64,000 nt of DNA, from assembly GCA_964602715.1 (NCBI GenBank), contig CAZRSB010000003.1, positions 5,783-69,782 on the forward strand, read 5' to 3'. The DNA is from an uncultured Thermoplasmata archaeon (GTDB lineage: Archaea > Thermoplasmatota > Thermoplasmata > Halarchaeoplasmatales > Halarchaeoplasmataceae). The notes beneath the pieces are model-generated. The model did no database searches. It had not been told where the DNA came from and saw only the letters and a list, made by a program, of their open reading frames with translations. Positions 16,247-46,835 of the stretch are shown piece after piece; within the stretch, counting starts at the first letter, position 1, and the number at the start of each line of letters is the position of its first letter. The position numbers and the translations under genes are program-made.

Positions 16247-16248
16247 AT

Positions 16249-16431
16249 TTACTCATCTCCACTGTTGGCACTTTCTTTCTTCTTTTCTTCCTCTATATCT
16301 TCTCCAGCCTGCTTTAGAATCGCTAGTGCCATCGCCCGAACTACAGTATCTCCGTGTTTAGCCAGTCGATGGAGTTTGTCTTTGTTCTTTCTGACGTATT
16401 GTTCAACATCATTCATCCTCATCACCATCAT
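16249..16431 (-). CDS. hypothetical small protein
   Basis: 60-aa ORF immediately upstream of 15884..16246 on the same strand. Confidence 0.35.
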   Translation of the reverse strand: MMVMRMNDVEQYVRKNKDKLHRLAKHGDTVVRAMALAILKQAGEDIEEEKKKESANSGDE

Positions 16432-16573
16432 TCATTTCCTTTTTACTTAAGAGAAGAAATATTCCTTCTCTCACATAACTACTCAGAGAATTACCTGTCT
16501 TTTGAGCCCGTTTTTCCAACTTTTCATAGGTAGAAGGTTTCAATCTGACAACGATCCGCCTTTTCTTAGACAT
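16409..16573 (-). CDS. ribbon-helix-helix (CopG/Arc-like) protein, 54 aa, not in ORF track
   Basis: Manual translation MSKKRRIVVRLKPSTYEKLEKRAQKTGNSLSSYVREGIFLLLSKKEMNDGDEDE. Basic beta-strand RIVVRL followed by two helices. Overlaps 16249..16431 by 23 nt. Confidence 0.5.
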   Translation of the reverse strand: MSKKRRIVVRLKPSTYEKLEKRAQKTGNSLSSYVREGIFLLLSKKEMNDGDEDE

Positions 16574-16681
16574 CGTATCGGTACACCTTTATAGTCACAT
16601 TCATCGTAATCTTTTTCACAGATGGCCGATTTTCAAGATTTGAAAATAGGTGCTTAAAGTGAAATTCGAGGTTTTCAAAAG

Positions 16682-17749: not shown

Positions 17750-17761
17750 TATTGGTGTATT

Positions 17762-18997
17762 CTAATCAACTCTATCTTTCAATACTTTCTTGAACTCTTC
17801 CATTATCTCTTCGTTTTCGTTCATCAACTTTACCATGTCCATGAAATCCTGCATATCATCTAACACTTCTGGCTTTTCTTTTGCAAGTTGGGTAAAATCT
17901 TTGCTTACATCTTCTTTATCCTCTTCTATCTCTTGAGCGGCTTCCACACTTAGCGCTTGTCCACATCGCTGACAAAATTTAGCCTCGGGGGAGTTCTTTT
18001 CTTCACATCTAGGACAGTCTATAGGTGATAATTCGGCGTTGTCATCCTCTTCTTCCTCCTTTATCCCATGAATCTTGTCATATGCGTCATCTATATCTCT
18101 TCCGCTGAGATGCACATATTTAGAAGGTTGATCACTACCTTGGACCCATCCAAACCATTCACACATCATCGCCTCTGTGAATCTGGGGGCTAAAAATGTT
18201 GCTCTACTGTGTCGAAAATGATGTGGATTTACAGGCTTATTGATTTCTGCCTTTTCCGCTGTAGTGTTTAATGCCTTGAGTAAAGTTCTATATTCGGCTT
18301 TCTTTCCGTTATTTTTTGTACCAATATTGACCCATAACGGAGCACTATCCTCATCCCTTTTTGGATGTGAATTTAACCACTCTCTCACATCTGGAATACT
18401 GCTTACTAACGGGAGCCTTCTCGGGCCTGTCTTTCCGTTTATCACAATTTTCAGTCCGTGTTCACGATCCTCAAAATCCCCAATGGTCAGATCAATAATC
18501 TCACCGATTCTAGCGCCTGTTTCCCAGAGAAGGCTGATTAAACACCGATCTCTCGGGTTGCTAGCGTGATTTATCAACTTACTCACATCATCTTCAGTCA
18601 GCATTTTTTTCGGTAACTTACCGTTATTCTTTTTCTCTGTAGTATTGATCCAATCTACTTTATCTGGATATACCCCATCATTCAACCACTTATAGACTAC
18701 TTTTAGAACTATCTTATACTGTCTTTTAGTGGCATCAGCAATATCTCTAGAGTTTACCCAGGCTACAATCTCTTCTATTTGTTCTCTTTCAGCGCCTTTC
18801 AAGTCAAAATCGACATGTTCTAAGATTTTTTTCAAATGTGAGAGAAGTTTTTGTAAGTGAGCATCTGAATAGTCCTGTAGCATAAGATGCCTATGATATT
18901 CTTCTAAGAGTCCTTTGTTTCCTTCAGTTACTTCGTCATTCTCTTTTACCTTTTCGAGGATTTGCTCATGCCGCCCCTCATAGTCTAGGAGAGTCAT
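17762..18997 (-). CDS. int: tyrosine recombinase/integrase with C-terminal zinc ribbon
   Basis: SAM-like N-domain. Catalytic residues in TGARIGEI, HHFRHSRAT and the downstream Y region. C-terminal CPRCEEKNSPEAKFCQRCG. Confidence 0.8.
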   Translation of the reverse strand: MTLLDYEGRHEQILEKVKENDEVTEGNKGLLEEYHRHLMLQDYSDAHLQKLLSHLKKILEHVDFDLKGAEREQIEEIVAWVNSRDIADATKRQYKIVLKVVYKWLNDGVYPDKVDWINTTEKKNNGKLPKKMLTEDDVSKLINHASNPRDRCLISLLWETGARIGEIIDLTIGDFEDREHGLKIVINGKTGPRRLPLVSSIPDVREWLNSHPKRDEDSAPLWVNIGTKNNGKKAEYRTLLKALNTTAEKAEINKPVNPHHFRHSRATFLAPRFTEAMMCEWFGWVQGSDQPSKYVHLSGRDIDDAYDKIHGIKEEEEDDNAELSPIDCPRCEEKNSPEAKFCQRCGQALSVEAAQEIEEDKEDVSKDFTQLAKEKPEVLDDMQDFMDMVKLMNENEEIMEEFKKVLKDRVD

Positions 18998-19548: not shown

Positions 19549-20061
19549 ATGAAAGAAAAATCAAGATTGGGAAAGGAAAAAAAATCTAAACCTAAAAGAG
19601 GAAAAGATAGAAAAGATAAGGCGGATCATATGAAGAAGAAAGCTAAATATGACAAAAAAATTGCAAAACAGGAAAAGAAAATAGGCAAATATGAGGGTAA
19701 AATAGAAAAATATCGAAATAAAATAGAAGATTTCAAAGATAAAATAAATAAAGCAAAGGCAAAACAAAGAGAAGCACAGCAGCTTTCAGGGAGAGCACAC
19801 AAGAAAACCCAATCGAAAAAAGAGAGAGGTGACAGGGAAAATAAGGCTAAACATATGAAAGAGAAGGCAAAATATGATAAGACTATCGCAAAGCAGGAAA
19901 AGAAAATCGGTAAATATGAAGAGAAAATAAGTAAGTATAAAAATAAGATTAAAAAATATAAAAAGAAAAAGAAAGATGCTTTGGGAAAAAAGAAGGAACT
20001 GAAAAAAAAATCTAATGAAGAAAAGAAATCTATAAGAAAAGACTCTAATAAAGAAAAGTAA
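19549..20061 (+). CDS. Lys-rich protein with a ~75-aa internal duplication
   Basis: Repeats of HMKKKAKYDKKIAKQEKKIGKYEGKIEKYRNKI. GGTGG RBS. Confidence 0.5.
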   Translation: MKEKSRLGKEKKSKPKRGKDRKDKADHMKKKAKYDKKIAKQEKKIGKYEGKIEKYRNKIEDFKDKINKAKAKQREAQQLSGRAHKKTQSKKERGDRENKAKHMKEKAKYDKTIAKQEKKIGKYEEKISKYKNKIKKYKKKKKDALGKKKELKKKSNEEKKSIRKDSNKEK

Positions 20062-28773: not shown

Positions 28774-29301
28774 TCACTTTTTGTAATATCTATCCCTTTC
28801 GCTGAAAATACAGCCGCAATATCCCTGTTTATAGAGGTTTAATTTATTTGCCATGTTATGATGTTCTGAAAAACCTTTCCTCAAGTCCTTATAAATAAAT
28901 TCTACATCTTTTGATCTTCCAACTCTTTTTCCTACCTTTTTGATCAATTGATGATCCTGGTATGGTGAGATAGTTAATGTTGTGGAAAATCGAGGTATTT
29001 TCTTTTCTTTAGCAATTTTTGCCGTCCTCAGAAATCTTCTTTCATAACAGATCTCACATCTATTTTCAGCTTCTAGCGCTTCTTTTAAAAAGCCTTCTAA
29101 GTGGTATTCATCTAAAAAAATAATTTTTGTATCTATCTCTTCCTCAAAGTTTTTCATAGATTCTAAGCGTTTCTCATATTCTTTAAAAGGGTGTATATTA
29201 GGATTGAACCAGATAGGTGTCACATCATCATATGCCTTTTTAAACTCTTTATAAGAGTAGGTAAGACAAGGAGCACAACAAGTATGAAGTAAGATACTCA
29301 T
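28774..29301 (-). CDS. queH: epoxyqueuosine reductase QueH (DUF208) homolog
   Basis: N-terminal LLHTCCAPC and C-terminal GYCGCIFSE match QueH hallmarks. 175 aa. Confidence 0.8.
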   Translation of the reverse strand: MSILLHTCCAPCLTYSYKEFKKAYDDVTPIWFNPNIHPFKEYEKRLESMKNFEEEIDTKIIFLDEYHLEGFLKEALEAENRCEICYERRFLRTAKIAKEKKIPRFSTTLTISPYQDHQLIKKVGKRVGRSKDVEFIYKDLRKGFSEHHNMANKLNLYKQGYCGCIFSERDRYYKK

Positions 29302-29325: not shown

Positions 29326-32300
29326 TCAAAAATCTAGAGAAAGTCGTTTTTTCTTTTTTTTCTCCTTTTCCGCTTTCTTTTCCTCTTTCTCTTCTTGAAA
29401 TTCATACACTACTAAATTAGTTCCGCAATCCGGACACTCCTCTTCTTCCTGAGAACAAGAGACATCATAGAGTTTACCACAGCTACAGTAAATTAGTTTT
29501 TCACCTTCATCGATCATCTCCCCACAAACTTCACATTTTTCCTTTTCCTCGGCAACTCTTAACTCTGAGCCTAGACTCACATCTAAAATTTCTTCGTCTT
29601 CAAAATTTTTATCGTCAAATATTCTAAGACCGCTAGCTACGATAGAGGCTCCCTCGTTCGAAGGTTTGATTTCACATGTGATCACGTGTTCTTCTCCAGC
29701 TTTTAGCTTTTCTTTGTTTGATATATCTCTAATCTCGCCCCCTATGAGTTCTATTTTGATATCTTTAGCGAGAGCTTGACCCTGGTTTATTAGTGAAATA
29801 TCCGCTTCATCCCATTTATCTACAGTAAATTTTCCAGAAACGTGCACTTCAATATCTGGGCTGTAATCAGAAAGCACATCCTCAATCTCTTGATGAGCTT
29901 CTTTTATTTTTTCAAAGGCTTCTATTTTGTCTTTCTCCTTTTTTATTGCCTCGGCCTCCTCTAATTTTTCTACAGCTGATTTGACGGAAGCTCCGAATTT
30001 TTTAGCATTTTTTATGGATTCCTTAACTTGGTTTAGAATCTCATCATACTCTTTCTGCTTCTTCAGACCTGAAATATTTTTAGCCTCTTCAATATATTTC
30101 GAAGCTTCTATAGGGTTATCAAACTCCATGAAAAATCTAGCTTTCTTCAGTATCTCTAACGCATTATCGACATCCTTTTCTCCTTTTTTTCTGACGTCTC
30201 CTTCTAGATTCTCAATGACGTCCCTGATCACGTCTTTATTTTCTGCTAAAATTTTATCAATATCTTCTAGAATCCTTTTAGCTTTTTTATATTGGCCATT
30301 TCTGTGATATTGGATGACTTCATTTTTCCTTTCTTCAAACTCAGATATATCTATTTCTCGATTTTCAAACTCTTCCATCAGGGTGTCAATATTATCTATA
30401 AAAAGTTTGATGTCTTCATACGCTTTCAATAGATTACTTAATTCTTCCCAAGCTTTCCAGGAATTTTCAATCACCTTAGTGTAGAAACCACTCTCATATG
30501 ATTGATTTGCTTGTTTCAGTATTTTTTTTGGTTGTTCAATTAGGATACCTTGATCCTGGAGCCTTTCTAACTCCTCTTTAGTTTTCGTAAGGCTTATGTT
30601 GGCTAATTTCTTCTGCATGCCCATCCTTTCTAGCTCACCCTCTGTTTGCATCGCGAACTTTACACCTTCGAGAAATCTCCTTTCATTTTTAGCTTTAACA
30701 GCTTTTTGAATCTTATTTTCAGCAAGAGCGGTATAAACGCCTTTATCACTTAGATCTTTTATTCTTTTTTTAGAATTGTTTATGATCTGTTCTAATCTAT
30801 CCTGCTGAGCTTTCTTACTGTCATCTAAAATTTTTTCAGCCTTTTCAAAAGCTTCATGATACCTAGCTTTTTCTATGTCTTCTTCAGCTTTTTCACTTAA
30901 CTTCCTTTCCTTACTTACATCCGCACCCATTATAGCAGCCTTCATCAAAGTGGTCTTGGCCTCAGCTAACACTTTTCTAGCTGATTTACCTTCTTCTTTA
31001 ATTTCATCAAGATCTTCTTTCAGGCCTTTTAACTTTTCTAGAGAATCCGTAATCCTTTTTTGGTTCAGCAAAGATCTTGTCCGTTTAATCTTATCTTTTT
31101 TCTCATCAACTTGAAAGCCCATCTCTTTCGCACAATCGCAGATGTCTTTAATCTTTTCTAATTCCTCATCTAAAGATTTTTCCAATATATCATTCAATTC
31201 GGTCTGTTTCTCTTTTATAATCTCCTTCACATCCGATTTTTCCCTGTCACTAACGGACTCTTTGATCTCTTGAAATTCTTCCTCGAATTCTTTAACCTCT
31301 TTATCAGAGAGCTCATAATTTTCTATTTTTTCTAATTTTTCTTCGATATTATGTGTTACCTCTTCAAAAAGATTATCAAATTCAAAGTTAGTGAGGATTT
31401 CATCAGCTTCCTGGGTTTTTTGTATGCTGTTCTCGTAATTCCTTGCTTCAAATTCTTTTTTTGCCTCTAACAATATGTTCTTTGCTGAATTGAGTTCATC
31501 ACCATCTTTTTTCTTTCTAAGATCTTTTAATTTAGATGCCGCGGCTGAAAGCATATCATAAGCTTCTTTTCTTTTATCTTTCAACTTAACCAGCTCCTTT
31601 TTCAATTTCTTTGCCGAAATTATACTATCGACAAAATTTTTTCTTTCTGTTTCTTCCTCTAAGTTTTTTAAATTTTCTTCATAAGCATCGGTTTCGACCC
31701 CCTCCTTCTTCGCCTCTTCTATCTCCTCTCTCGTTGTAGTCAGGGTTTTCTCAGCTATCAGAGATAGCGAGTTATTTAGGCTATCAAAAGCTTCTTCTAT
31801 TAAGGGCAAAGCTTCTGTTTCTTCGTCATCTTTCATGAAATCCTTAGCTTTTTCTATTTTTTCCTTTTGAGTGTCTATGTCTTCTACTTCTATCTCTTCT
31901 TTTTCAACTAGCTCTATTTTATCAAGAACCTCATCAATCTTGCTTTCTGCGGCACCCATCTTGACTCTTTTTACTTTTTTTCTTAAATGTTCTAGATTCT
32001 TTATAGAATCATCATATCTACTTTCTTCGATGCTTTTTTCACCTTTTGATACGATATCACTGAGCTCCTCCTTTGTCTCCTTTTCGATGTCTTCTATCTC
32101 GATTTGTTTTTCCCTAATTTCATCGTACTCCTGCTTTAATTTGCTTTCGATTTTTTCTGAAATTATCTCTATTCCTTTTTGAGCTATCTCAGCACTTTCT
32201 AAGTGATCAGAAGCTTCATATTTTTCACGGCTTCTTTTTATCTGATCAGAAAGTGATTCTAAATCGATATCTAATTTTTTTGCGCTTTTAGATAGATCTT

Positions 32301-33738
32301 CTAAATCACTGATCAGTGATTTAGCCTTTTCTTTTGATGCCTTAACTATTTTCTCCTGAAGCTCCTGGGATAAAGATGTTACTTTTTCTAAATTTTTTTC
32401 ATCCCATTGATATTTTATATCCTCTATTAACCCCTCTAACTCTTCAAAATCCTCCTCAAAAACGTTAATTAGTTTCCTGACTTCATCTTTCTGTTCTTGT
32501 ATCTTTTCTTTAGTTTTTTCAAACTTTTCAGTTAATTCTTGAACCTTTTCTCTTCCTTTGTGAGCCCACTCTAAAGATTCCTTGTAATCGTTCTTTTTCA
32601 AAGAATCTCTAGCAGTATTTAAAAATCGCATAGGCTCTTTTATGTCTGCACCTATCTCTTTAGCTTTTATGAAATCCTCCCTAGATTCCGCTATAGTATT
32701 CAAAACTTTATCGAATTTTTTTTCTTCAATTTTTTCTAAAGCTTCATTTAATAATCTATCAGCTTCTTCAATTTTGTCTTTTTTTTCTAAATTTTCAGCC
32801 TCCTCCCTCATCTCTTCTACTGTTTTTATAGGAGCATCTATCTCTTCTGCTTCCTCTATCTCCTCATCTAATTTCCTGAATTTTGATCCTAATATCTTTT
32901 CATCATAGATCTGATTGATCTCTTTTTTACCTTGTTTTAAATCTCTCAAAGCTTCTAAATATTTTTCCTCTTTGATTTTAGATTTTCCGTCATTTAATAA
33001 TTTATCCAAATTCGTTAATTTAATATCCTTGTTTTCTTCTAATTTCGCTTTTTTCCTTTCGATTTCGTTTATATTTTCCTGTAAGCCTTCTTCTACATGG
33101 TCTAGTATCTCTTTTTCTATATCTTGGATCAGAGACAAAGCTCTTTCAAATTCTTGAGAATCCAAAGAATACTCAGCCTTCGAAACCAACTCTTTCCCGG
33201 CCTCTTTTACATCTTCTGGTTCATCAAGGAAATCTATTAGAGACTCTAATCTTTCTTTCCTTTCTATTAAACCTTTTTCAATTATTTTCTCTGATTCCTT
33301 TTTCACCGTCACGATTTCATTTAAACCTTCTTCAATATTTCCCTTTTCTAGAAGAACCTTACAGTTTTCGATCTTTTCCTGCATCTCCTTAGATCCGCTC
33401 TCAGAATCAACTTCTTCTAGTATCTTATCTAAAGGACCAATCAACTCTTCATATTTTGAGATGCTTTGTGATTTTATAGATTCAATAACTTCTTGAAAAA
33501 TATCCAATGATTTTCTAAAATTCTTTTGTTCTAATTCTTCTTTACCTTCCTCAAATGACGTCTTCACATCTTCCAATTCTAAATCTACCTCGGAGGACTC
33601 AGCCAAATCAAGGAGTTTTTCCGTTTCTTTCATCATCTCCTGGGCATTTTTCTTTTCTTCCGCCGTCTTTTTGGCTTTTTCCTCCATCTCCTTTGCAAGT
33701 TGTCTTGCTTTTAGATACTTACCTGACAATCTTTTCAC
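29326..33738 (-). CDS. giant coiled-coil protein (1470 aa) with C-terminal beta-rich domain and zinc ribbons
   Basis: E/K-rich heptad-like sequence through about 1250 aa. C-terminus: CEVCGEMIDEGEKLIYCSCGKLYDVSCSQEEEECPDCG, then a KEKKKKK tail. Confidence 0.7.
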   Translation of the reverse strand: MKRLSGKYLKARQLAKEMEEKAKKTAEEKKNAQEMMKETEKLLDLAESSEVDLELEDVKTSFEEGKEELEQKNFRKSLDIFQEVIESIKSQSISKYEELIGPLDKILEEVDSESGSKEMQEKIENCKVLLEKGNIEEGLNEIVTVKKESEKIIEKGLIERKERLESLIDFLDEPEDVKEAGKELVSKAEYSLDSQEFERALSLIQDIEKEILDHVEEGLQENINEIERKKAKLEENKDIKLTNLDKLLNDGKSKIKEEKYLEALRDLKQGKKEINQIYDEKILGSKFRKLDEEIEEAEEIDAPIKTVEEMREEAENLEKKDKIEEADRLLNEALEKIEEKKFDKVLNTIAESREDFIKAKEIGADIKEPMRFLNTARDSLKKNDYKESLEWAHKGREKVQELTEKFEKTKEKIQEQKDEVRKLINVFEEDFEELEGLIEDIKYQWDEKNLEKVTSLSQELQEKIVKASKEKAKSLISDLEDLSKSAKKLDIDLESLSDQIKRSREKYEASDHLESAEIAQKGIEIISEKIESKLKQEYDEIREKQIEIEDIEKETKEELSDIVSKGEKSIEESRYDDSIKNLEHLRKKVKRVKMGAAESKIDEVLDKIELVEKEEIEVEDIDTQKEKIEKAKDFMKDDEETEALPLIEEAFDSLNNSLSLIAEKTLTTTREEIEEAKKEGVETDAYEENLKNLEEETERKNFVDSIISAKKLKKELVKLKDKRKEAYDMLSAAASKLKDLRKKKDGDELNSAKNILLEAKKEFEARNYENSIQKTQEADEILTNFEFDNLFEEVTHNIEEKLEKIENYELSDKEVKEFEEEFQEIKESVSDREKSDVKEIIKEKQTELNDILEKSLDEELEKIKDICDCAKEMGFQVDEKKDKIKRTRSLLNQKRITDSLEKLKGLKEDLDEIKEEGKSARKVLAEAKTTLMKAAIMGADVSKERKLSEKAEEDIEKARYHEAFEKAEKILDDSKKAQQDRLEQIINNSKKRIKDLSDKGVYTALAENKIQKAVKAKNERRFLEGVKFAMQTEGELERMGMQKKLANISLTKTKEELERLQDQGILIEQPKKILKQANQSYESGFYTKVIENSWKAWEELSNLLKAYEDIKLFIDNIDTLMEEFENREIDISEFEERKNEVIQYHRNGQYKKAKRILEDIDKILAENKDVIRDVIENLEGDVRKKGEKDVDNALEILKKARFFMEFDNPIEASKYIEEAKNISGLKKQKEYDEILNQVKESIKNAKKFGASVKSAVEKLEEAEAIKKEKDKIEAFEKIKEAHQEIEDVLSDYSPDIEVHVSGKFTVDKWDEADISLINQGQALAKDIKIELIGGEIRDISNKEKLKAGEEHVITCEIKPSNEGASIVASGLRIFDDKNFEDEEILDVSLGSELRVAEEKEKCEVCGEMIDEGEKLIYCSCGKLYDVSCSQEEEECPDCGTNLVVYEFQEEKEEKKAEKEKKKKKRLSLDF

Positions 33739-33959
33739 CTCAGCAACCTATAATTTTTTGATTAATCAATATTCCGTACACGGATTTTTTCATATTCCTA
33801 TATTATGTACTAACATATAGTCATTGGGAACGAGGTTTATTTTTTTTTCTATTTTTTGATGAGTAAAACTATGTATTGTAGGTCCAAATGTGAAAATCGA
33901 AAGATTTTTATACTCTATCAACCCTATTTTGTCATACATATCGTCAGACAGGAGTTACC

Positions 33960-34511
33960 ATGGGACGAAAATTACCTAAATACCTAAAAGAAAAAGAGGT
34001 TAGGAAGCTTCTCAAAGCTCCTGAAAGAGAAAAGATACGCGATAGGTTGATTCTGAGAATCCTATATAGATGTGGATTAAGAGTCTCAGAACTCACATCG
34101 CTTAAGATAGAGGACATTGATTTCGATGAAAATATGATAACTGTGAGAGGAGGAAAAGGGGATAAAGATAGAGTTGTTCCTATTGATCATGAAACTTTAG
34201 ATCTAATCCAGCTTTACAAAAAAGACGCAGAAAAAGGAATACTTATACTTTCACAGCGTGGACAAGGTCTCTCTACTAGACAGATCGAGAGGATAGTCAA
34301 AAAATATGCAAAGAAAGCTGGAATCGATAAAAATGTCTATCCACACATGTTGCGACATAGCTTTGCTGTACATTCTTTAAAAGCAGGAATGAATTTAAGG
34401 AGTGTGCAGAAGATGTTAGGTCATTCGTCATTGACTACTACTCAAATTTATCTAGATCTCACAGGTGAAGATATAAAGAAAGATTACGAAGAGCATCCTC
34501 TACCAGCCTAA
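33960..34511 (+). CDS. short tyrosine recombinase (catalytic domain only, 183 aa)
   Basis: RVSELTSLKIEDID...VRGGKGDKDRVVPI...HMLRHSFAVH...LGHSSLTTTQIYL gives R, K, HxxR and Y catalytic residues. No N-terminal core-binding domain. Confidence 0.75.
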   Translation: MGRKLPKYLKEKEVRKLLKAPEREKIRDRLILRILYRCGLRVSELTSLKIEDIDFDENMITVRGGKGDKDRVVPIDHETLDLIQLYKKDAEKGILILSQRGQGLSTRQIERIVKKYAKKAGIDKNVYPHMLRHSFAVHSLKAGMNLRSVQKMLGHSSLTTTQIYLDLTGEDIKKDYEEHPLPA

Positions 34512-34558
34512 TATTTATATCAGTAAACTGCTTGTTGTTTTAGCACATTACCCGAACC

Positions 34559-35806
34559 ATGAAAAAACAAGGTGAAAATATGGAAGATGTTTTCCAAAAA
34601 ATAGAAGATATGAAAAAAGAAATGAAAGAATCATTGATCAAGATGTTGAAGATCCCTGCTATCGGTCCAAGCAACGATGGAGATGGAGAAAAAAGTAGAG
34701 CAGATTTTATCTTAGACTTGATAGAAGATTTTGGATTTGATTCTATCGAGAGGTATGATGCAAAAGATGATAGAGTACCAAGTGGTATAAGACCAAACAT
34801 AATCGCTACTAAAAAGGGAAAAACAGACAAGAATTTAGTGATAATCAGCCATATGGACATAGTTCCTGAAGGTGATCTAGAAGAGTGGGATACCGATCCA
34901 TTCGATCCAATTTTTGAAGATGGAAAAATTTACGGCAGAGGTTCAGAGGATAACGGACAAGCCCTGATCTCTAGTATTTATGCAGTTAAAGCCATTACCG
35001 AAACTGAAACAAAGCCCGAATACAATATCAAGATCATGATGGTCTCTGATGAAGAAACAGGTAGCGAATATGGTGTAGATCATCTCTTAGAAAAGGGGGT
35101 TTTTGATAAAGATGATATGATACTTGTTCCCGATCATAGCGAAAAAGAAGGAAAACGAATCGAGATCGCAGAAAAGGCCGGGTTATGGGTCAGAGCGGAA
35201 GTACATGGAGAACAAGGTCACGCTGCTTATCCGGGTTACAAAACAAACGCAAATAGGGTTATGGCGAGATATCAGAATTTGGTAGATGAAGAACTCCATC
35301 ATGAATTCCAAGAAGAGAGTGAACTCTTTTCACCTTCAAAAAGTACTTTTGAGCCAACTAAAAGATTGAGTAATGTACCCAATGTCAACACAATTCCTGG
35401 AAAAGAAGTCCAGTATTTCGATTGTAGAGTATTACCCTCAATAGATCTAGATAAAGTAAAAACTACTTTCAATAAATGCGCAGAATTCTTAGAAGACGAA
35501 GTAGATTGTGAGATAAAAATCAAGTATGTCAAAGAAAGCGAGGCGCCTAAAAGAACTCCTGAAGATTCTAAAATAGTACGAAATCTGAAAAAAGCAGTGG
35601 AAGAAGTTACTGGATTTGAACCAGGTGTAGCAGGGATAGGTGGTGGAACAGTAGCTAAAAGCTTCAGAGATAAAGGCATACCAACAGCCGTTTGGTGTTC
35701 AAATAAGGGGCTTGCTCACCAACCAAATGAATTTGCTGTTTTGGATTACATGGTGAGAGACGCCAAAGTATTTGCAAAATTAGCCACCAGGCCAGATGAT
35801 AACTAA
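34559..35806 (+). CDS. M20-family metallopeptidase (ArgE/DapE-like)
   Basis: SHMDIVPEGD, GRGSEDNGQAL and the M20 dimerisation-region pattern. Confidence 0.7.
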   Translation: MKKQGENMEDVFQKIEDMKKEMKESLIKMLKIPAIGPSNDGDGEKSRADFILDLIEDFGFDSIERYDAKDDRVPSGIRPNIIATKKGKTDKNLVIISHMDIVPEGDLEEWDTDPFDPIFEDGKIYGRGSEDNGQALISSIYAVKAITETETKPEYNIKIMMVSDEETGSEYGVDHLLEKGVFDKDDMILVPDHSEKEGKRIEIAEKAGLWVRAEVHGEQGHAAYPGYKTNANRVMARYQNLVDEELHHEFQEESELFSPSKSTFEPTKRLSNVPNVNTIPGKEVQYFDCRVLPSIDLDKVKTTFNKCAEFLEDEVDCEIKIKYVKESEAPKRTPEDSKIVRNLKKAVEEVTGFEPGVAGIGGGTVAKSFRDKGIPTAVWCSNKGLAHQPNEFAVLDYMVRDAKVFAKLATRPDDN

Positions 35807-36999
35807 AAAACTGTTATCTCATCATTTAAAATCTTTTCTTTGATATCATATATTTTATTCAGTTGGTCTTTAGCTATAGCTTCTGCATTTTCTTCCTTTA
35901 CTTCAGAATCTACGTCTTCTTCAACAACTAGTTGGATACTTCCTATTTGTGGATCCGTTATTGGTTTTCCGATCTGGGAAACTAGTCTGACCAAAACCTC
36001 ATGAACTCCATCTTTTTCCTCCTCATAAATCTCTTCAGCTATCTCTTTGGCGATTATATTATAGAGTTTACCTATATGCGTAACTGGATTTTTGCCAGCA
36101 GATGCTTCCATACTCATCGGCCTGAAAGGTGTGATTAAACCATTTATTCTATTTCCCCGACCTACTGAACCATCATCTCCATTTTCCATTGATAATCCTG
36201 TGACTGTCAGATAATATATGTCCTTTTCGTAATTATCAGCGGTGTTTATCATTAAATTCAGATCTCTAGAAGTTTGTTTCACCAAATGGTCCTTAACTCT
36301 TTCTCTGAGTTCTTGGATGACACTTTTGTAATGATCAGCATCAGGAGTGAGTGAATCGATAACTGCAGCTGCTATTGTTATATCGATCTTATCTTCTTTG
36401 CGGGTAGACATCACTTTGATATCTTGACCTATTTCTGGCAAATCTTCTTTTAGAGGACTATTTATGAATCTCTCAGTATCTAATGTTATCTTTTCTGTGT
36501 CACTTAAGGGTGCATATGATACTCCAAAAGAGGTGTCATTAGCATTCTGCTGACTTGTGTCATATACCTCCTGAAGATCTACAGAGCCCTTGCCTATCCG
36601 ACAGTCTATCATAACACCTTCTTCGACATTTAGATGGGGGCAACTTTTTTCTAAATAATTTTCTGCAGTATTTAAAGCTGTAGACTTGTAGGGCAGACGT
36701 TTCCCATTTACATCGGTTGTAGCTCTGCCTGCTAGAAGAATATAAACCGGCTCTAATATCTCCCCTCCACCAAATTTTGGTTTAGCCTGTCCACCCACGA
36801 TCTGTACTTCATCAGTGTTATGATGTAATATTCTACTATGTTTTTCTAGATACATCCTTGAGAGAGACTTACTAATTTCCTCTGCAATTCCATCAGCTAT
36901 ACTATCGGGATGTCCCATACCTTTCCTTTCGACTATCTCCATCTTCTGGTCCTCAATAGGGGTTTCGTGAATTGTTTCAGCATTTATTTCGCTACACAT
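35803..36999 (-). CDS. mat: archaeal-type S-adenosylmethionine synthetase
   Basis: [16 protein letters not shown] and overall archaeal MAT architecture. 398 aa. Confidence 0.9.
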
Positions 37000-37285
37000 C
37001 TCATATCTCCTCTTAAATCTTTTAATTTAAAATTCAAAGTAGGATGGTTTATTTAATATTAGTGACATCCTCACCAGCCAAAGTTGATGAGGTTGCATTC
37101 TGCTCGCCGACTTGACTGTCTTTTCTGCTTTCATCTCCTCAGCTTTACAGGATCTTTTAGATATTTGAGTGTTCATCAAGGGGAAGGGTAAAAGTGAAAC
37201 GCCGATCCATCAGCGGTGATAACGAGGATGAAGAGGACGATAATCCTTGCGGAAGGTGTCTTCTCGGTCACCTATGTATAATTGA

Positions 37286-39034
37286 TCAATATCCCCAGAA
37301 ATCCTTTTCTTTTTGTTTTATCTCCCTGATTTCTTCTAAAATTCTTTCTTCATCAAAGGTAAGGTCTAAATCTCTCAATTCTCTTGCATCACCTTCTGGA
37401 ATATCCACATATAGTTCCTCCTTCTCTTCGATCTGTCTTCCAACAGTAACTCCTTCTATCGCAACCGCCACTTCCTCCCCCTGTTCTGCACAATCTAAGG
37501 ATTGCTCCCCACTCCTTATACTTCTTATCTCACCAACAACTCTACCATTATTCTTCAGGATCCTTCCCTTCGGTCTCAGATTACCGGCGAGGACCCTCAC
37601 CCCTACAATAGCTGGTTTAGACATTCTAAAGACATGATCTTCTAAAATTCTAAATTTAACTGGATGCACAACCTTTTCTCTTCTTTTTTTCTCCAACTCT
37701 TTTTCCTTTTCTTCTTTCCATTCTTGATATTCTTCTACAAGTCTATAAACAACATCATTTTTAAATAAAGTTACATCTTCCTCTTTCAGTTCTTCTTTAG
37801 CCTCGGGAAGAACCCCAACGTTGAAGGCAAGGATAACCTTCTCTAGGGGATTCTCAACTGTTGTAGCATCAGTTATGTCTTTCTTAGAAACATCTCCTAC
37901 GTCTGCCCTCACTATAGGTATATCTTCTTCTTGTAGTTCGAAGGCTAACCCCTCTAAAGAGCCTATAGCATCAGCTTTGACGACTACTCCTTCATCTTCA
38001 GTTTCTATGTTAGCTTTGCTTTCTTTTTTTATCATTTCAATTATTTCTTCTAATTCTTGTTCTCTAACGACCTTGATAGGAGCTCCAGCTAAAACACCCT
38101 CACATTCCGGAGTGACCAACTTCACCCCTGAAGCTGCACTTACCTCATCGATCTCCTGAAATTTTTCCCTAGGGTCTCGTATCTCGTCCATAGGTCTCGG
38201 TCTTAATAAAGCCTTGACTTTAGTGTGTATAGGATTATTTTTAGTTCCTATGACGACTTCGTCTCCTTTACATATGATGCCATCGTGAATAATAGTATCA
38301 AAAGTTGTTCCAAGGCCAGTTTCTTCTTTGACTTCCAAAATAGTCCCCTCTCCTGGACCATCTTCAACTTGTATTTGATCCTCCAGATAAGTTTGAGCTA
38401 AACCGATAAGAGTCATCAATATGTCTTCTATTCCTTCCCCTGTCTTAGCACTCATCGGCACTATCCCAATATTATTTGAAAAATTGTTGACCCTATCATA
38501 TCTATCAGCAGAAAACCCTTTGTCATAAAGATCCCCTATAATCTCATATAAGGAATCAGTCATCCTACTTTTTGCATCTTCTGATTGGTTTTGTAAATTT
38601 TTAACAAAGGGTTCATCCTTTGAATTCCACCCAGGAACTTTGTCCAATTTATTTGCTCCCACAACAAAAGGTGTCTTTTCTCTCTTTAAAATATCCAAAG
38701 ATTCTTTAGTTTGGGGCATGAAGCCATCGTTTATATCCACAATCAACACTGCTAAATCAGCTAACGAGCCTCCTCTTGACCTTAGGTTTATAAAAGAATG
38801 ATGACCTGGTGTGTCGATGAACAACAGACCTGGTAGTCTAAACTCAACTTCACATCCTAGTTTAGAGCATGCCTTTTCCAATGCTTCAATGGGGACCTCA
38901 GTAGCTCCAATATGTTGAGTGATAGCACCAGCCTCTCTTTCCTGGACAGCGGTTCCTCTGATCCTATCTAAAAAAGTAGTCTTACCGTGATCAACATGTC
39001 CCAGAACGCTGACTATAGGCTGGCTAGTTCTCAT
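37286..39034 (-). CDS. infB: translation initiation factor aIF5B (IF2 homolog)
   Basis: QPIVSVLGHVDHGKTTFLDRIRG, DTPGH, NKLDK. 582 aa. Confidence 0.9.
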   Translation of the reverse strand: MRTSQPIVSVLGHVDHGKTTFLDRIRGTAVQEREAGAITQHIGATEVPIEALEKACSKLGCEVEFRLPGLLFIDTPGHHSFINLRSRGGSLADLAVLIVDINDGFMPQTKESLDILKREKTPFVVGANKLDKVPGWNSKDEPFVKNLQNQSEDAKSRMTDSLYEIIGDLYDKGFSADRYDRVNNFSNNIGIVPMSAKTGEGIEDILMTLIGLAQTYLEDQIQVEDGPGEGTILEVKEETGLGTTFDTIIHDGIICKGDEVVIGTKNNPIHTKVKALLRPRPMDEIRDPREKFQEIDEVSAASGVKLVTPECEGVLAGAPIKVVREQELEEIIEMIKKESKANIETEDEGVVVKADAIGSLEGLAFELQEEDIPIVRADVGDVSKKDITDATTVENPLEKVILAFNVGVLPEAKEELKEEDVTLFKNDVVYRLVEEYQEWKEEKEKELEKKRREKVVHPVKFRILEDHVFRMSKPAIVGVRVLAGNLRPKGRILKNNGRVVGEIRSIRSGEQSLDCAEQGEEVAVAIEGVTVGRQIEEKEELYVDIPEGDARELRDLDLTFDEERILEEIREIKQKEKDFWGY

Positions 39035-39092
39035 GTTTTGCCTTAAGAAGAAATGCTATATAACTCTTTTTCGATTTTGACCATAAAAAGCT

Positions 39093-39848
39093 TCAAATCT
39101 CTTTTTTCTTACCACTGTACCAATGATGCTCTCCACGAATCTCAAAACCGAGATCCCTAGCTAGTGAGAGTGAGGGAGAGTTGTCTTTAAAAATTTGGAC
39201 CGCAGGTATTAAATTCATATCCTTTGCATCGAGACAGAGTTTTTCAGTGATTTCTTTCGCAAAACCCATGCGACGCCAATCTTTTTTGATGTGTAACATA
39301 CCAAACATGATGGTTTGATCAGTTATAAAATGAGTCAAACTCCAACCGATCAGATCTCCATTTTTCCTTATACCATATGCTGGGCCTTTCCTAATCCTTT
39401 GTTTTATGTAATCTGTAGAGTCTGTATCAGAAAGACCCCAATAATCATTTATGATCCTCGCATCTTTGTCTTCAAGGGGTTGAATCTCGGATTCAGGAAA
39501 AATTGGCTCACGATATGTTCTTTTCAATAGCCAGGTTGGTCGGTCATCTTCTACCTCAACGACCGCTTTACTAATCTCAAAAGAAATAGGATCAACAGCG
39601 TGAAACCTGTATATTCTTCCTTCATCCAGGTTTTCTTTCAATAGTTTTTCCATTTGAACTCCATCACCTCTTATTGTTATGGTTTCATCTTTCTTTATCA
39701 ATATCGCTGAAACCTTATCATCTTTTATAGAAGCGAAAATTTCGGTATCTTTCTCTTCCAGTCTAGCCAATTGGTAGGAATTGACCACTGGTTCTTTTTG
39801 AAGATATTTCTTAACTGTTCTTTTTGATTTTGAATTTGTAACGTGCAT
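39093..39848 (-). CDS. GNAT-family acetyltransferase-like protein
   Basis: C-terminal half has motif-A-like HIKKDWRRMGFAKEI. Confidence 0.5.
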   Translation of the reverse strand: MHVTNSKSKRTVKKYLQKEPVVNSYQLARLEEKDTEIFASIKDDKVSAILIKKDETITIRGDGVQMEKLLKENLDEGRIYRFHAVDPISFEISKAVVEVEDDRPTWLLKRTYREPIFPESEIQPLEDKDARIINDYWGLSDTDSTDYIKQRIRKGPAYGIRKNGDLIGWSLTHFITDQTIMFGMLHIKKDWRRMGFAKEITEKLCLDAKDMNLIPAVQIFKDNSPSLSLARDLGFEIRGEHHWYSGKKKEI

Positions 39849-42856: not shown

Positions 42857-43229
42857 AAGTTAAAGGGTAAAATATGTTGCAAAATACTGATATTTCTGAA
42901 AACAATTTGACTCTGGAAGCTCAGTCTGACGATTACATAACCATGTTTTTTCTGTTTGATTCCGTTTTAGAGAATAGTGAGATCCAGTCACAAACAGCCA
43001 TACAATTATTTAAGAACATCCAGAACCAAGGACTACAATAGTTAAGATAATTAGCCTATTTTTTTATTCAAATCCCCAAAACTTTTATAGGATTAAACAC
43101 CTTTAGTATCTTGTCCGACGTATCAATGCTTTACGTCGGACGACACATCCCACGGGATGGGATTAAAATGCACTGTAAAACCTTAAAATCTAATCCTTTA
43201 AAGATCCAGTTCCTTGGAGGAAGATAATT

Positions 43230-46200
43230 TTGCACCTTAAAAAGGTTAGGATGGAAAATTTTAAGTCATTTGGAAAGAAGATGGAGATTCCCTTCAAAAA
43301 AGGTTACACAAATATTACTGGTCCAAATGGATCAGGGAAATCTAATATCGCAGACGCTATTTTATTCATCTTAGGTCCTAAAAGCTCTAAAGAGATAAGA
43401 GCTGGACGTCTGACAGATCTAGTATTCAACGGAGGTAAAAATGATGAAGCCGCAGATTATTGCAAAGTGAGTCTAATCTTTGAAAATGAAGATCGTACCA
43501 TTCCTCTTGATGAGGATCAAGTTACATTTACGAGAAAGGTAAAAAAGTCAAATAACGAGCAAGGATATAATTCTTATTTCTACGTAAATGGTAGATCTTC
43601 AACACTAACTGAATTTCAAGATCTATTAGCTCACGCACGTATATCCCCAGGAGGATATAACATAGTACAGCAAGGAGACATATCCAAAATCGTAGAGATG
43701 AGTTCTACAGAAAGAAGAAGAATATTAGATGATATATCCGGCATAAGTTCCTATGATGACGAGATAGAGGAAGCTGAGGAAAAGAAAGAAGAAGTAATCA
43801 ACGACCTAGACAGGATAAGTATACTCCTTGATGAGATCTCTACTCAAGTAGAGGAGTTAGAAGAAGATAGGGATCAAGCTCTAAAATACCAAGAATTAAA
43901 GGATAGAGCCTCTGAAGCCGAGCAAAAGAAAACTTGGAAATTGATACAAAACACTGAAAAAAATATAGCATCAATTCAACAAGATATAAAGGACAACAAA
44001 GATCATATAGAAAAAAAGGAAGAGAAAAAGAAAGAACTTGAAAATAACATCAAAAAGCTTGTTGAAGATATCGAAAAGATAAAAAAAGAACTAAAAGAGA
44101 AGGGTAGTGAAAAAAGTAAGGAATTACAAAGGAAAATAAATGAACTTAGATTAGAAATAGGAAGAGCCGATGATAGAAAAGAGGATGCAGAGTTCACTAT
44201 TGAATCTAACAAAAAGAAAAGAAAAAAATTACAAGAAAATCTGAAAGAAAGGAAAAAGGATCTAAAGGAAATAAAGGATGAAAAAAGAAGTTTAAAAGAA
44301 GAAAAAAGTGAGAAAGAAGAGAAGCTCAAAAAATTAAAAGAAAATATAGAAGAGGTAGAAGATAAACAATCTGATTCTGACGAAAGAATAAGAGACCTAA
44401 AAAAAGAAATTATTGGCTTGGAGAATAAGATCGGTGAAAAAAAAGAAAAACTCTCGAAAAAAAAGATAGAATTAGAGACGGTAAAAGATAAAATAGAAAG
44501 AATCGGTGAAGAGATAGCAGAGCTGGAAGAAGAAAAAGAAGACATCGAATTTGAAAAAAGAGAAAAAGAAATAGAACTCGAAGACATAAGTGAAAAAAAT
44601 ACAACTCAAAAAAATAAGCTATCTGAGCTCAAAGAAGAATTTCATAAAAAAAAGAAAAAAGAGAAAAGATTGAGAGACGATAAGGATGATCTAGAAGACA
44701 GAGTAAAAAGATTAAAAAGAAAATATGAACAGTTAAAAGCACAAAAGCATGCTGCTAAATCGGTAAAAAAAGGCTACAGCAACGCCGTTTCAAGCATATT
44801 AGAAGCTAGAGATAAGGGTCAATTAGAAGGAATACACGGCACCATTGCGGAACTAGCTGATGTAAATGATGAATACGAGGAAGCTCTAAAAGTGGCTGCA
44901 GGAGGGAGGATGCAATGTATTGTGGTCGAGAACGACTCAGTTGCAACTGAAGCCATAGAACATTTAAAAAAGAAAAAATCTGGACGAGCGACTTTTTTAC
45001 CACTAAATAAAATGAGAAGTGGACGCCCTAGAGGTAAAGCTTTAAGAACTGTTAAAACTGACAGAGCTGTAGATTTTGCCATCGAGTTAGTGGATTATGA
45101 TGATAAATATGATAATGTATTTTGGTATGTTTTTCATGATACAGTTGTGATGGAAGATATTGATTCAGCTAGAGAACAGATGGGAGGGGTGAGGATGGTC
45201 ACCCTGAATGGTGAAAAGATCGAAAAGAGCGGGGCTATGGTCGGAGGCACACTAAAAAAGAATATGATCGGGTTCAGTGCTCCAGATAGAGGCAAATTAG
45301 AGAAAGTGAGTACAGACTTGAGGAATAGTAGAGAAAATCTGAAGATGGTTGAAAATTCTTTAAATGATGTAAAAAACGAAGTCCAAAAAATACAAGATGA
45401 AATACAAGATCTAAAGAACGAAAGTGATCAACAGCGACAATCAGAACTTGAAGCACATATCGGAAGGTTGGAATCAAAAATAAAGAAAAAGGAAAATAAG
45501 ATCCAGGAGAAAAAAAATGAAGAGAATGACCTAGAATCTAAAGAAGAAAAATTGACTAAATCAGTAGGTCATTTAGAGGATGTAATAGATAATCTCAAAC
45601 AAGAAAAAGATACAATAAAAGAAAAGGTTAGAGAGATCAGCCCAGAAGAACTCTCTCAAAAATTGAGAGAACAGAAAAACAGAGAAGTGGAATTGGATAA
45701 AAAAGTGAATAAATTAGAATCAAAACTTGACAAGAAGAAAAACGAGATAGAACATATAGAAAATAAAATACAAGATATAAAGGAGAAAAGGGAAGAGCTA
45801 GGAGAAGAGATAGAGAGAAAAAAGAGTGAGATAAAAAAATCCTTTTCCATAATAGAAGAGAAAAAATCAAAATTGGAGGAGTTAGAAAACGAAGAATCAG
45901 AAGTAGACGATGAATTGGAAGAGTTAAGAGATGAACTCGAAGAAAAAAAGGAAGAAAGACTGGAAAAAAAACATGAAATCGATCAGTTAGATACAGAGAT
46001 AGAATCTAAACGAGAATTTATTATTAGTTCAAAAAGAAAGATGAGTACCGAAAAAGAAAAGCTCGAAGATTTGAAGGAAGATATAGATGAAGATATTGAT
46101 TTTTCAGATAAAAAACTTCCCACAATGAAAGAACTGAAAAACACAGTTAGAAGATGTAAAAATAAGATGGAAGAACTGCAGCCAGTCAATATGAGAGCTT

Positions 46201-46835
46201 TAGAAGATTATGAAAAGAAAAAAGAAAGAAAAGAAGAACTTCAAGAAGAATTCTCAGAGCTGGAAAAACGGAAAGAAGAATTAGACAAATTGATAGAAGA
46301 ATTGGACGAAAAAAAGAAAGAAGGATTATTAAAAGTAAAAGATGAGATAAACAAAAACTTCGGAAAAGTTTACGAGGAGCTATCAGATGGTGGTGAGGCA
46401 CATCTAGAATTGGAAAATCCAAATGATCCTTTTGAAGGTGGACTGACTATAAAAGCACGACCACCGGGTAAAAAGGTACATTTGATCAACGCTCTTTCTG
46501 GTGGAGAAAAAAGCCTAGTGTCTATGGCATTTATTTTTTCTATCCAGATATATGATCCCTCTCCATTTTATCTTTTAGATGAGATTGATCAAAATCTAGA
46601 TGCAGTTAACGCCGAAAATGTTGCAAAAATGATAAAAGATAATTCGAAAAGCGCACAGTTCATACAGATATCACTAAGAAAAGTCACCTTGAAAAAATCT
46701 GACCATATCATTGGCGTAACTATAAACGACGATGGTATATCAGATGTGATCATGAAAGTAAATATAGGTGAAGAAGAAGAAAAAGATCTTCCCGAGCTTT
46801 CAGATGTTAGTGGACTAAAACCAGAGGTGAATTGA
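43230..46835 (+). CDS. smc: chromosome segregation protein SMC
   Basis: TTG start after a GGAGG RBS. N-terminus MHLKKVRMENFKSFG...GPNGSGKSN, long coiled coils, hinge, C-terminal LSGGEKSL and LLDEID. Confidence 0.9.
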   Translation: MHLKKVRMENFKSFGKKMEIPFKKGYTNITGPNGSGKSNIADAILFILGPKSSKEIRAGRLTDLVFNGGKNDEAADYCKVSLIFENEDRTIPLDEDQVTFTRKVKKSNNEQGYNSYFYVNGRSSTLTEFQDLLAHARISPGGYNIVQQGDISKIVEMSSTERRRILDDISGISSYDDEIEEAEEKKEEVINDLDRISILLDEISTQVEELEEDRDQALKYQELKDRASEAEQKKTWKLIQNTEKNIASIQQDIKDNKDHIEKKEEKKKELENNIKKLVEDIEKIKKELKEKGSEKSKELQRKINELRLEIGRADDRKEDAEFTIESNKKKRKKLQENLKERKKDLKEIKDEKRSLKEEKSEKEEKLKKLKENIEEVEDKQSDSDERIRDLKKEIIGLENKIGEKKEKLSKKKIELETVKDKIERIGEEIAELEEEKEDIEFEKREKEIELEDISEKNTTQKNKLSELKEEFHKKKKKEKRLRDDKDDLEDRVKRLKRKYEQLKAQKHAAKSVKKGYSNAVSSILEARDKGQLEGIHGTIAELADVNDEYEEALKVAAGGRMQCIVVENDSVATEAIEHLKKKKSGRATFLPLNKMRSGRPRGKALRTVKTDRAVDFAIELVDYDDKYDNVFWYVFHDTVVMEDIDSAREQMGGVRMVTLNGEKIEKSGAMVGGTLKKNMIGFSAPDRGKLEKVSTDLRNSRENLKMVENSLNDVKNEVQKIQDEIQDLKNESDQQRQSELEAHIGRLESKIKKKENKIQEKKNEENDLESKEEKLTKSVGHLEDVIDNLKQEKDTIKEKVREISPEELSQKLREQKNREVELDKKVNKLESKLDKKKNEIEHIENKIQDIKEKREELGEEIERKKSEIKKSFSIIEEKKSKLEELENEESEVDDELEELRDELEEKKEERLEKKHEIDQLDTEIESKREFIISSKRKMSTEKEKLEDLKEDIDEDIDFSDKKLPTMKELKNTVRRCKNKMEELQPVNMRALEDYEKKKERKEELQEEFSELEKRKEELDKLIEELDEKKKEGLLKVKDEINKNFGKVYEELSDGGEAHLELENPNDPFEGGLTIKARPPGKKVHLINALSGGEKSLVSMAFIFSIQIYDPSPFYLLDEIDQNLDAVNAENVAKMIKDNSKSAQFIQISLRKVTLKKSDHIIGVTINDDGISDVIMKVNIGEEEEKDLPELSDVSGLKPEVN

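Follow-up and report, generated by a model that had tools for sequence, protein, structure and literature searches.

We describe here a gene, mini-xerA, in a 64,000-nucleotide stretch of DNA from an uncultured Thermoplasmata archaeon (the window, i.e., positions 5,783 to 69,782 of contig CAZRSB010000003.1). The gene lies at 33960..34511 on the forward strand, and its product of 183 amino acids (aa), which we call mini-XerA, corresponds to the catalytic half of the archaeal recombinase XerA. We consider it probable that mini-xerA encodes a functional site-specific recombinase of the archaeal XerA lineage that lacks the core-binding domain, its catalytic domain working alone. As part of this best explanation, the gene would most plausibly be present in single copy and inherited vertically, as part of the core genome of Ca. 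Haloplasmatales, a halophilic order of Thermoplasmatota. Mini-XerA is likewise likely to be the founding type of a wider clade of proteins of 181-194 aa, which includes members from other Thermoplasmatota and from some archaeal virus- or plasmid-like contigs. The host is archaeal: the window carries aIF2-alpha, aIF5B, an archaeal S-adenosylmethionine synthetase, Pus10, the signal recognition particle RNA and SMC. Coordinates are collected in Table 1, and related loci are designated by L numbers.

Mini-XerA matches the catalytic domain of archaeal XerA

The only Pfam match of mini-XerA is to Phage_integrase (PF00589, E = 6.7e-48), at residues 7-167. The residues that characterise the tyrosine recombinase superfamily (R, K, H-x-x-R, H/W and the nucleophilic Y) occur in this order as R41, K66, H129-x-x-R132, H155 and Y164, and are invariant across an alignment of 35 sequences. 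A preliminary description of this DNA, made from the sequence alone, had proposed a recombinase reduced to the catalytic domain and carrying the R, K, HxxR and Y residues, and our analysis bears it out on both points. The XerA equivalog model of NCBIfam (NF040815) scored mini-XerA at 228.1 bits, above the cutoff of 220, by matching model positions 91-263 only, i.e., the catalytic half. Other members of the clade of short proteins scored 163-221 bits with this model, most of them under the cutoff.

The closest solved structures are those of the XerA of Pyrococcus abyssi (4a8e, residues 98-272) and of Thermoplasma acidophilum (5hxy), with whose catalytic domains mini-XerA shares 43-50% identity. 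The AlphaFold (AF2) model of mini-XerA had a predicted local distance difference test score (pLDDT) of 89.2 and a template modelling (TM) score of 0.88 to the catalytic domain of 5hxy, with about 59% of the 5hxy chain covered. Foldseek placed XerA 5hxy (TMq 0.88), 4a8e, IntI4 and XerH as its best matches. The fold predicted by the model is that of a complete XerA catalytic domain. It keeps the C-terminal helix of the alphaN type that follows the catalytic tyrosine; in the XerA of P. abyssi this helix is required for recombination (PMC3646895). The isoelectric point (pI) of mini-XerA is 9.66, that of the proteins encoded by its neighbours about 4.8. A basic pI amid an acidic, salt-adapted proteome fits a DNA-binding protein.

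Models of other families matched poorly. The integron-integrase models TIGR02249 and NF011946 gave 128.7 bits (cutoff 265) and 89.2 bits (cutoff 435), in two stretches split around an IntI-specific insertion that mini-XerA lacks. The preliminary description had likened the protein to FimB and FimE, a comparison that fails: the models of these invertases (NF007370 and NF007371) gave 71.5 bits (cutoff 222) and 65.5 bits (cutoff 221). By these comparisons, mini-XerA belongs to the archaeal XerA lineage and not to that of FimB/FimE, and its catalytic domain appears nearer to XerA than to any integrase family.

The short form is conserved and under purifying selection

Orthologs of mini-xerA in at least 17 species have exactly 183 codons, with no insertions or deletions. 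They differ at few nonsynonymous sites (pN 0.08-0.135) as against saturated synonymous divergence (pS 0.8-0.98), and the few unsaturated pairs gave dN/dS ratios of 0.03-0.045. The close relatives, at 80-87% identity, come from genomes in GTDB, which are metagenome-assembled genomes named Ca. Natronoplasma, Ca. Saliniplasma, Thermoplasmata or Thermoplasmatota (one is PWKY01) and were obtained from hypersaline and soda-lake sites. In the literature, the Ca. Natronoplasma/Saliniplasma-type lineage corresponds to Ca. Haloplasmatales.

A search among 5.8 billion proteins retrieved more than 80 clusters of 181-194 aa, with identities from 100% down to about 47%, and full-length forms (278-300 aa) first turned up at 50% identity or less. 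In a neighbour-joining tree, which carries no support values, 84 of 85 short forms fell in one clade, beside the archaeal full-length XerA. Mini-XerA has motifs that are specific to this clade (HSFAVH and QIYLD-TGEDIK-DY--HPLP). Judged by the sequences, the short forms make up a conserved clade on which purifying selection acts strongly.

We also looked for the family among viruses, plasmids and metagenomes. A scan of IMG/VR with the short-form alignment gave only distant relatives (27-37% identity). A scan of metagenome contigs with generic patterns gave, among the matches listed, only proteins that are 35-45% identical to the query, none of them belonging to the short family. Searches with tblastn against deposited phages and plasmids gave nothing above 44% identity, and the two phage matches that we inspected were full-size integrases.

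One virus-like contig of about 40 kb (L008/L009; ENA k141_937866, JGI Ga0210003_1000451) encodes a mini recombinase of 189 aa, 49% identical to mini-XerA. Alongside genes for a family-B DNA polymerase and a PD-(D/E)XK nuclease, it has a primase-like gene, two tRNAs and numerous small open reading frames (ORFs) that run in one direction, and it had no match in IMG/VR or in deposited phage records.

The N-terminus is genuine and the core-binding domain is missing

Canonical XerA consists of an N-terminal core-binding (SAM-like) domain and a catalytic domain, which together form a C-shaped clamp; mini-XerA has only the second. It begins exactly at the linker that precedes the catalytic domain (KLPKYL, aligned to XerA residues ~98-105). 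The 221-bp spacer that precedes the gene was searched for an N-terminal domain separated by a frameshift or encoded further upstream, and none was found: stops occur in all three frames and no upstream frame resembles a core-binding domain. The conserved position of the Shine-Dalgarno-like motif in 18 species speaks for 33960 as the true start. The TATA box, the leader boxes described below, the Shine-Dalgarno motif and the ATG are all kept in these species, no frame stays open upstream, and lengths in the same range recur in more than 80 clusters; we therefore take the N-terminus to be genuine.

The missing domain could be provided in trans by a separately encoded small protein, the two forming together the C-shaped clamp on dif. 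A precedent exists in the MpsA and MpsB proteins of SGI1, a catalytic-only tyrosine-recombinase-like protein and its separate SAM-like partner (PMC9299015), and the exact start of mini-XerA at the pre-catalytic linker speaks for such a split. We searched for the partner with tblastn and with a hidden Markov model (HMM) built from 29 XerA core-binding domains. No core-binding ORF was found in the window, save a weak match inside an unrelated 411-aa integrase encoded at 17762-18997. The HMM had no match in 312 kb of related loci, nor in L137-L139, and no core-binding ORF adjoins the mini-xerA-type genes on the mobile-element-like contigs. Against the 5.8 billion proteins, the core-binding profile retrieved only fragments or frameshifts of Thermococcales XerA, in a search of limited sensitivity. 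A split XerA is unlikely. The 411-aa integrase is the only other tyrosine recombinase of the window; it belongs to a mobile element and scored 102 bits with NF040815 (cutoff 220), so it is not a XerA.

Genomic context

The housekeeping block downstream of mini-xerA (Table 1) is conserved beyond the species of the window: the M20 peptidase is also directly 3' of the gene in L010 and L027, and aIF5B adjoins it in L220. The conservation of this block indicates that mini-xerA is fixed in the core chromosome.

The upstream side is more variable. We scanned 18 Haloplasmatales loci for tRNAs, and in 15 of them mini-xerA is preceded by a divergent tRNA-Lys(CTT), usually at 120-220 bp, but at ~860 bp in L010 and ~4 kb in L027. 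Carriers include L004, where the tRNA is at 9804-9880, and L010-L027. In L004 and L010, eRF1 and the arginyl-tRNA synthetase lie beyond the tRNA. The slot between tRNA and recombinase is occupied in L027 by a gene for a 1264-aa subtilase, in L010 by an ORF of 196 aa. The window has no tRNA-Lys(CTT), and a block formed by a giant gene, QueH and aIF2-alpha stands in its place.

This arrangement suggests another reading, in which mini-XerA is domesticated or a relic, descends from a mobile-element integrase that targeted tRNA-Lys(CTT), and mediates, or once mediated, the uptake and exchange of cargo genes in the slot between tRNA and recombinase, the giant gene being one such cargo. The frequent presence of the tRNA, the contents of the slot that differ between species, and the clade members on virus-like (L008/L009) and mobile-element-like (L139) contigs speak for it. 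Yet mini-xerA is not flanked by mobile-element genes or att-like direct repeats, and it is the 5' end of the tRNA that faces it, whereas the integrase of a mobile element would be expected within an element with att repeats, as a rule at the 3' end of a tRNA; both flanks are housekeeping in the relatives. The leader boxes occur once per locus, downstream synteny and promoter are kept across species with saturated synonymous divergence, and the catalytic domain resembles XerA more than any integrase family. We regard this reading as improbable.

More distant short forms occupy other positions: beside an amidohydrolase (L003, L006 and L221), between primase genes (L137), by aIF5B (L220), and beside eIF-1A/RIO1 (L138). 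The full-length XerA of other Thermoplasmata is found in the same neighbourhood as the short form of L138, which is a hint, not proof, of positional orthology between the two. A search of the Haloplasmatales loci for eIF-1A/RIO1, where the loss of an ancestral full-length XerA might show, did not find it within the sequences covered.

The gene divergent from mini-xerA in the window encodes a protein of 1470 aa. The two are separated by a spacer of 221 bp (33739-33959) if the giant gene starts at its GTG, in agreement with the ~220 bp of the preliminary description, or of ~272 bp if it starts at Met18, as one gene caller has it. The giant gene is found beside mini-xerA only in assemblies of the same species, and no homolog of its product was found in any related locus examined. 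As far as these comparisons reach, it is a neighbour through a species-specific rearrangement and not a functional partner. The 1470-aa protein is rich in Glu and Lys and appears coiled-coil-like by its composition alone. By eye, its C-terminal ~200 aa are less repetitive and close with a zinc-ribbon-like motif rich in Cys (CEVCG...CPDCG) and, after it, a tail rich in Lys.

The giant gene is immediately followed, on the same strand, by a gene for a QueH-type epoxyqueuosine reductase (28774-29301, reverse strand; PF02677, E = 4e-55). Queuosine is regarded as a tRNA modification of bacteria and eukaryotes, and this archaeal QueH gene may have been acquired horizontally or may act in another role.

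In L003 (8106-9344, reverse strand) and L221 (3152-4252, reverse strand), the gene divergent from the mini-xerA homolog encodes a conserved protein of 366-412 aa, 58% identical between the two loci, with two zinc ribbons and, by eye, a stretch resembling a helix-hairpin-helix; it is unrelated to the giant protein. We considered whether the zinc-ribbon neighbours (the giant gene, the DZR proteins of L003 and L221, and x191 of L055) are homologous partners, and rejected it: the giant protein resembles none of the others, and these match one another only in the short zinc-ribbon motif.

Promoter, leader and candidate sites

The sequence before the ATG has the same architecture in 18 species. It consists of a putative transcription factor B recognition element and TATA box (BRE/TATA, CAAAATCTTTTTATA), ~17 variable nucleotides, TTGTCATAC, 4-5 variable nucleotides, GTC(A/T)GAC, and GGTGG or AGGAG. 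Further upstream of the BRE/TATA the sequence is unalignable among these species. We infer the promoter function of AAAGATTTTTATAC from the architecture of archaeal promoters.

The two boxes of the leader (consensus GTCATAC-N4-5-GTCWGAC) are kept, and the 4-5 nucleotides between them vary. The double box occurs once in the window, where 0 occurrences are expected, and each of 20 related loci has it once, in the same position. In L220 the TATA box is followed by GTCCGAC-N4-GTCAGAC. Because the double box is conserved across species with saturated synonymous sites, it is likely to be functional DNA, and its location where the transcription start is expected suggests an operator.

A tentative related site was found upstream of smc (43230-46835). 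This inverted repeat (TTGTCCGAC...CGTCGGAC), known here from the species of the window alone, lies ~25 nt after a TATA-like box. The promoters of smc and mini-xerA share the layout TATA-spacer-TTGTCnnAC...CGTCrGAC. The pattern TTTATA-N12-26-TTGTCMNAC, which was drawn up post hoc, has two matches in the window (0.08 expected), and these are the two promoters. Hence, mini-xerA and smc may share a regulator.

In four loci of lineages outside Haloplasmatales (L003, L221, L137 and L138), we found a conserved block of ~75 nt at 165-249 bp upstream of the gene. It includes ATGTCGnAAAA-N6-TTTTnCGACG, which has an 11-6-11 geometry, a TATA-like TTTATATA and a further GTCG box. The four loci agree exactly in the GTCG-N16-CGAC spacing and have hardly any other occurrence of the pattern. 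The intergenic regions are unusually long here (650-850 bp) and AT-rich.

In haloarchaea, the xerA operon is reported to have a dif-like site upstream (PMC11840125), which makes a recombination site linked to the gene plausible. The leader boxes, the smc repeat and the GTCG-N16-CGAC repeats are candidates for a recombination site, and we do not call them dif. Rfam gave no RNA family in the upstream regions.

Table 1. Position of mini-xerA and of the features discussed in the text (coordinates of the window, unless a related locus is given).
Feature	Coordinates	Strand	Remarks
mini-xerA coding sequence	33960..34511	+	183-aa catalytic-domain-only XerA-type tyrosine recombinase; ATG start; stop codon included
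Putative BRE/TATA of the mini-xerA promoter, AAAGATTTTTATAC	33900..33913	+	Consensus CAAAATCTTTTTATA; same distance from the start codon in 18 species
Double box TTGTCATAC-N5-GTCAGAC	33929..33949	+	In the 5' leader, near the expected transcription start; candidate for an operator or for half-sites bound by the recombinase
Shine-Dalgarno-like AGGAG (GGTGG in relatives)	33950..33954	+	5-9 nt before the ATG; position conserved in 18 species
Palindrome TTGATTAATCAA	33758..33769		Not part of the system; found only in same-species assemblies
Divergent 1470-aa coiled-coil gene	29326..33738	-	Matches nothing in Pfam or NCBIfam; does not flank mini-xerA at any other locus
Downstream housekeeping block (M20 peptidase, S-adenosylmethionine synthetase, aIF5B, GNAT)	34559..39848		Same order in L001, L002, L004 and L005
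Tentative related site, inverted repeat GTCCGACGTAT|CAATGCT|TTACGTCGGAC	43113..43141		smc promoter region; from an inverted-repeat scan of intergenic DNA
~75-nt block of related loci	L003 9853-9925; L137 5761-5835; L138 2388-2460; L221 ~4885-4960		

Invertase and pseudogene

The preliminary description had raised the possibility of phase variation, i.e., of an invertase like FimB/FimE that flips a promoter-bearing segment of the spacer and thereby switches the giant coiled-coil gene. The small, catalytic-only protein and the divergent position of its gene next to a large, possibly surface-related gene are in line with this idea, but most of the evidence is not. Apart from the low scores with the invertase models, a search for inverted repeats at 28.5-36.5 kb gave only low-complexity pairs (70-86% complementary), none of which convincingly bounds an invertible segment. 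The palindrome TTGATTAATCAA, to which attention had been drawn, is present in the spacer, but it has no significance beyond chance: the window holds 19 perfect palindromes of 12 bp, with 21 +/- 5 expected, and one turns up in 10% of spacers simulated with the same composition. The window and each of the loci hold just one copy of the leader motif. Conservation extends to the recombinase and its promoter but not to the giant neighbour. Finally, the three assemblies of the species (the window, L001 and L002) are identical over 33000-34600 and show a single orientation; it should be noted that minority orientations are hidden in assemblies. We find an invertase very hard to credit.

The same description had offered a truncated XerA as an alternative; the relation to XerA holds, but a decaying, functionless duplicate is the least credible reading of all, for although mini-XerA has no copy of a domain held to be indispensable in tyrosine recombinases (PMC8138268), its catalytic residues are invariant, the 17 species agree in its length, pN/pS is ~0.1 while pS is saturated, the architecture recurs in more than 80 clusters down to ~50% identity, and promoter, Shine-Dalgarno motif and start codon are kept. 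We consider the invertase and pseudogene readings essentially excluded.

Proposed function

In the explanation that we favour, a functional recombinase reduced to its catalytic domain, an ancestor of mini-XerA would have lost the N-terminal core-binding (SAM-like) domain. The protein would cleave and rejoin DNA through a Tyr-3'-phosphate intermediate and the Holliday-junction pathway, acting as a dimer or a tetramer. Sites would be recognised by the catalytic domain, possibly aided by a chromatin protein or by an unlinked partner. The most probable job of such an enzyme would be chromosome dimer resolution of the Xer type, or a related form of housekeeping recombination. The boxes at the transcription start of mini-xerA may serve in autoregulation or, given the similar layout before smc, in co-regulation. 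Truncated catalytic halves of the SSV integrase retain a reduced recombination activity in vitro (PMC8371274).

Several observations weigh against this explanation. Tyrosine recombinases are classified as all having a core-binding and a catalytic domain (PMC8138268), and the activity of mini-XerA in the absence of the former is a prediction from its sequence. In the same tree without support values, the short clade and the sampled Thermoplasmata XerA are sister groups, the former not nested within the latter, and this position would suit an old paralogue as well as a fast-evolving ortholog. If a full-length XerA is also present in these genomes, dimer resolution probably belongs to it. Some members of the clade are on virus- or plasmid-like contigs (L008/L009 and L139), and the family is not exclusively housekeeping. 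The leader boxes form only an imperfect 8-5-8 repeat. We compared the candidate repeats with the experimentally defined dif arms of P. abyssi (PMC2958812) and Thermococcus kodakarensis (PMC11840125), and neither these repeats nor any site of the window matched the Thermococcales arms better than shuffled sequence.

A more far-reaching form of the proposal is tentative, and we rate it as possible at best. A Thermoplasmatota clade including Ca. Haloplasmatales would have replaced the two-domain XerA by the catalytic-only enzyme, which would be the sole chromosome-dimer resolvase of these archaea. The catalytic domain or a non-homologous partner would recognise the site, and the site or operator would lie in the gene's own promoter, as the GTCnnAC double box in Haloplasmatales and, in sister lineages, as the GTCG-N16-CGAC repeat of 11-6-11 geometry. 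Regulation of the gene would be shared with smc.

A putative mobile element in the window

The 411-aa tyrosine integrase, which has a SAM-like N-terminus and a C-terminal zinc ribbon, is part of an apparent integrated mobile element at 12574-18997, which perhaps extends to ~20060. The region also encodes a 1109-aa protein with no strong Pfam match, primase-helicase-like by eye and with a helix-turn-helix at its C-terminus, as well as a 120-aa ORF and a PadR-like ORF of 355 aa. No att-like direct repeats were seen for the element at 12574-18997. At its edge, a gene at 19549-20061 (forward strand) encodes an extremely Lys-rich protein of 170 aa. This gene contains an internal repeat of ~225 nt, whose copies at 19606-19773 and 19831-19998 are 70% identical.

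Comparison with known systems

Databases already hold these short proteins under the automatic names of XerA or integron integrase, and such names cover proteins that lack the defining architectural feature of XerA. The reviews and the classification consulted give the architecture as core-binding plus catalytic, with no Xer devoid of the former (PMC8138268; PMC8371274), and our text searches of the literature found no description of a family of this kind. The existence of the clade points to one of three possibilities: the catalytic domain alone suffices for recognition and synapsis, a partner supplies the missing half, or the protein has another housekeeping role. If mini-XerA is the sole Xer of these genomes, it would define a minimal natural Xer system, its 183 aa would be of interest for the mechanism and as a compact recombinase scaffold, and it would reveal how an uncultured order of halophilic archaea organises the resolution of chromosome dimers. 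If it is indeed the sole resolvase, no natural Xer system before it would have done without a core-binding domain.

The archaeal XerA (Pab0255, 4A8E; T. acidophilum, 5HXY; NF040815) is the nearest known system. Mini-XerA shares with it the single recombinase gene in a housekeeping chromosomal context, the R-K-H-R-H-Y active site, the C-terminal helix after the tyrosine, and the similarity in sequence and predicted structure given above. It differs in the absence of the N-terminal four-helix core-binding domain (~95 aa, model positions 1-90) and in its clade-specific motifs.

XerS with difSL, XerH with difH, and the site of the haloarchaeal xerA operon (PMC11840125) are comparable in that one Xer-type enzyme is associated with conserved repeats directly upstream of its gene. 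The likeness is closest in L003, L221, L137 and L138, with their GTCG-N16-CGAC of the 11-6-11 type at -165 to -249. Yet XerS, XerH and the haloarchaeal XerA have full core-binding domains, and the elements upstream of mini-xerA are candidate sites, those of Haloplasmatales amounting to one imperfect 8-5-8 repeat.

FimB and FimE (NF007370 and NF007371) are also small (~200 aa) and consist essentially of the catalytic domain; they depend on accessory proteins that bend DNA. In contrast to them, mini-xerA has no invertible segment, no flanking inverted repeats in our search at 28.5-36.5 kb, and no conserved target gene.

Functional proteins with the tyrosine-recombinase fold and no core-binding domain in cis are known in MpsA of SGI1 (with its partner MpsB), TcpM and MobK. 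These are conjugative relaxases of bacterial mobile elements and belong to another subfamily, whereas the locus of mini-xerA has no oriT or transfer genes. The Int(C) fragment of the 'suicidal' integrases of the SSV type is a catalytic half alone that is reported to show weak recombination and DNA binding in vitro (PMC8371274). It is a by-product of an integration that splits the gene, whereas mini-xerA is an intact, stand-alone ORF of the Xer lineage that has been kept by selection.

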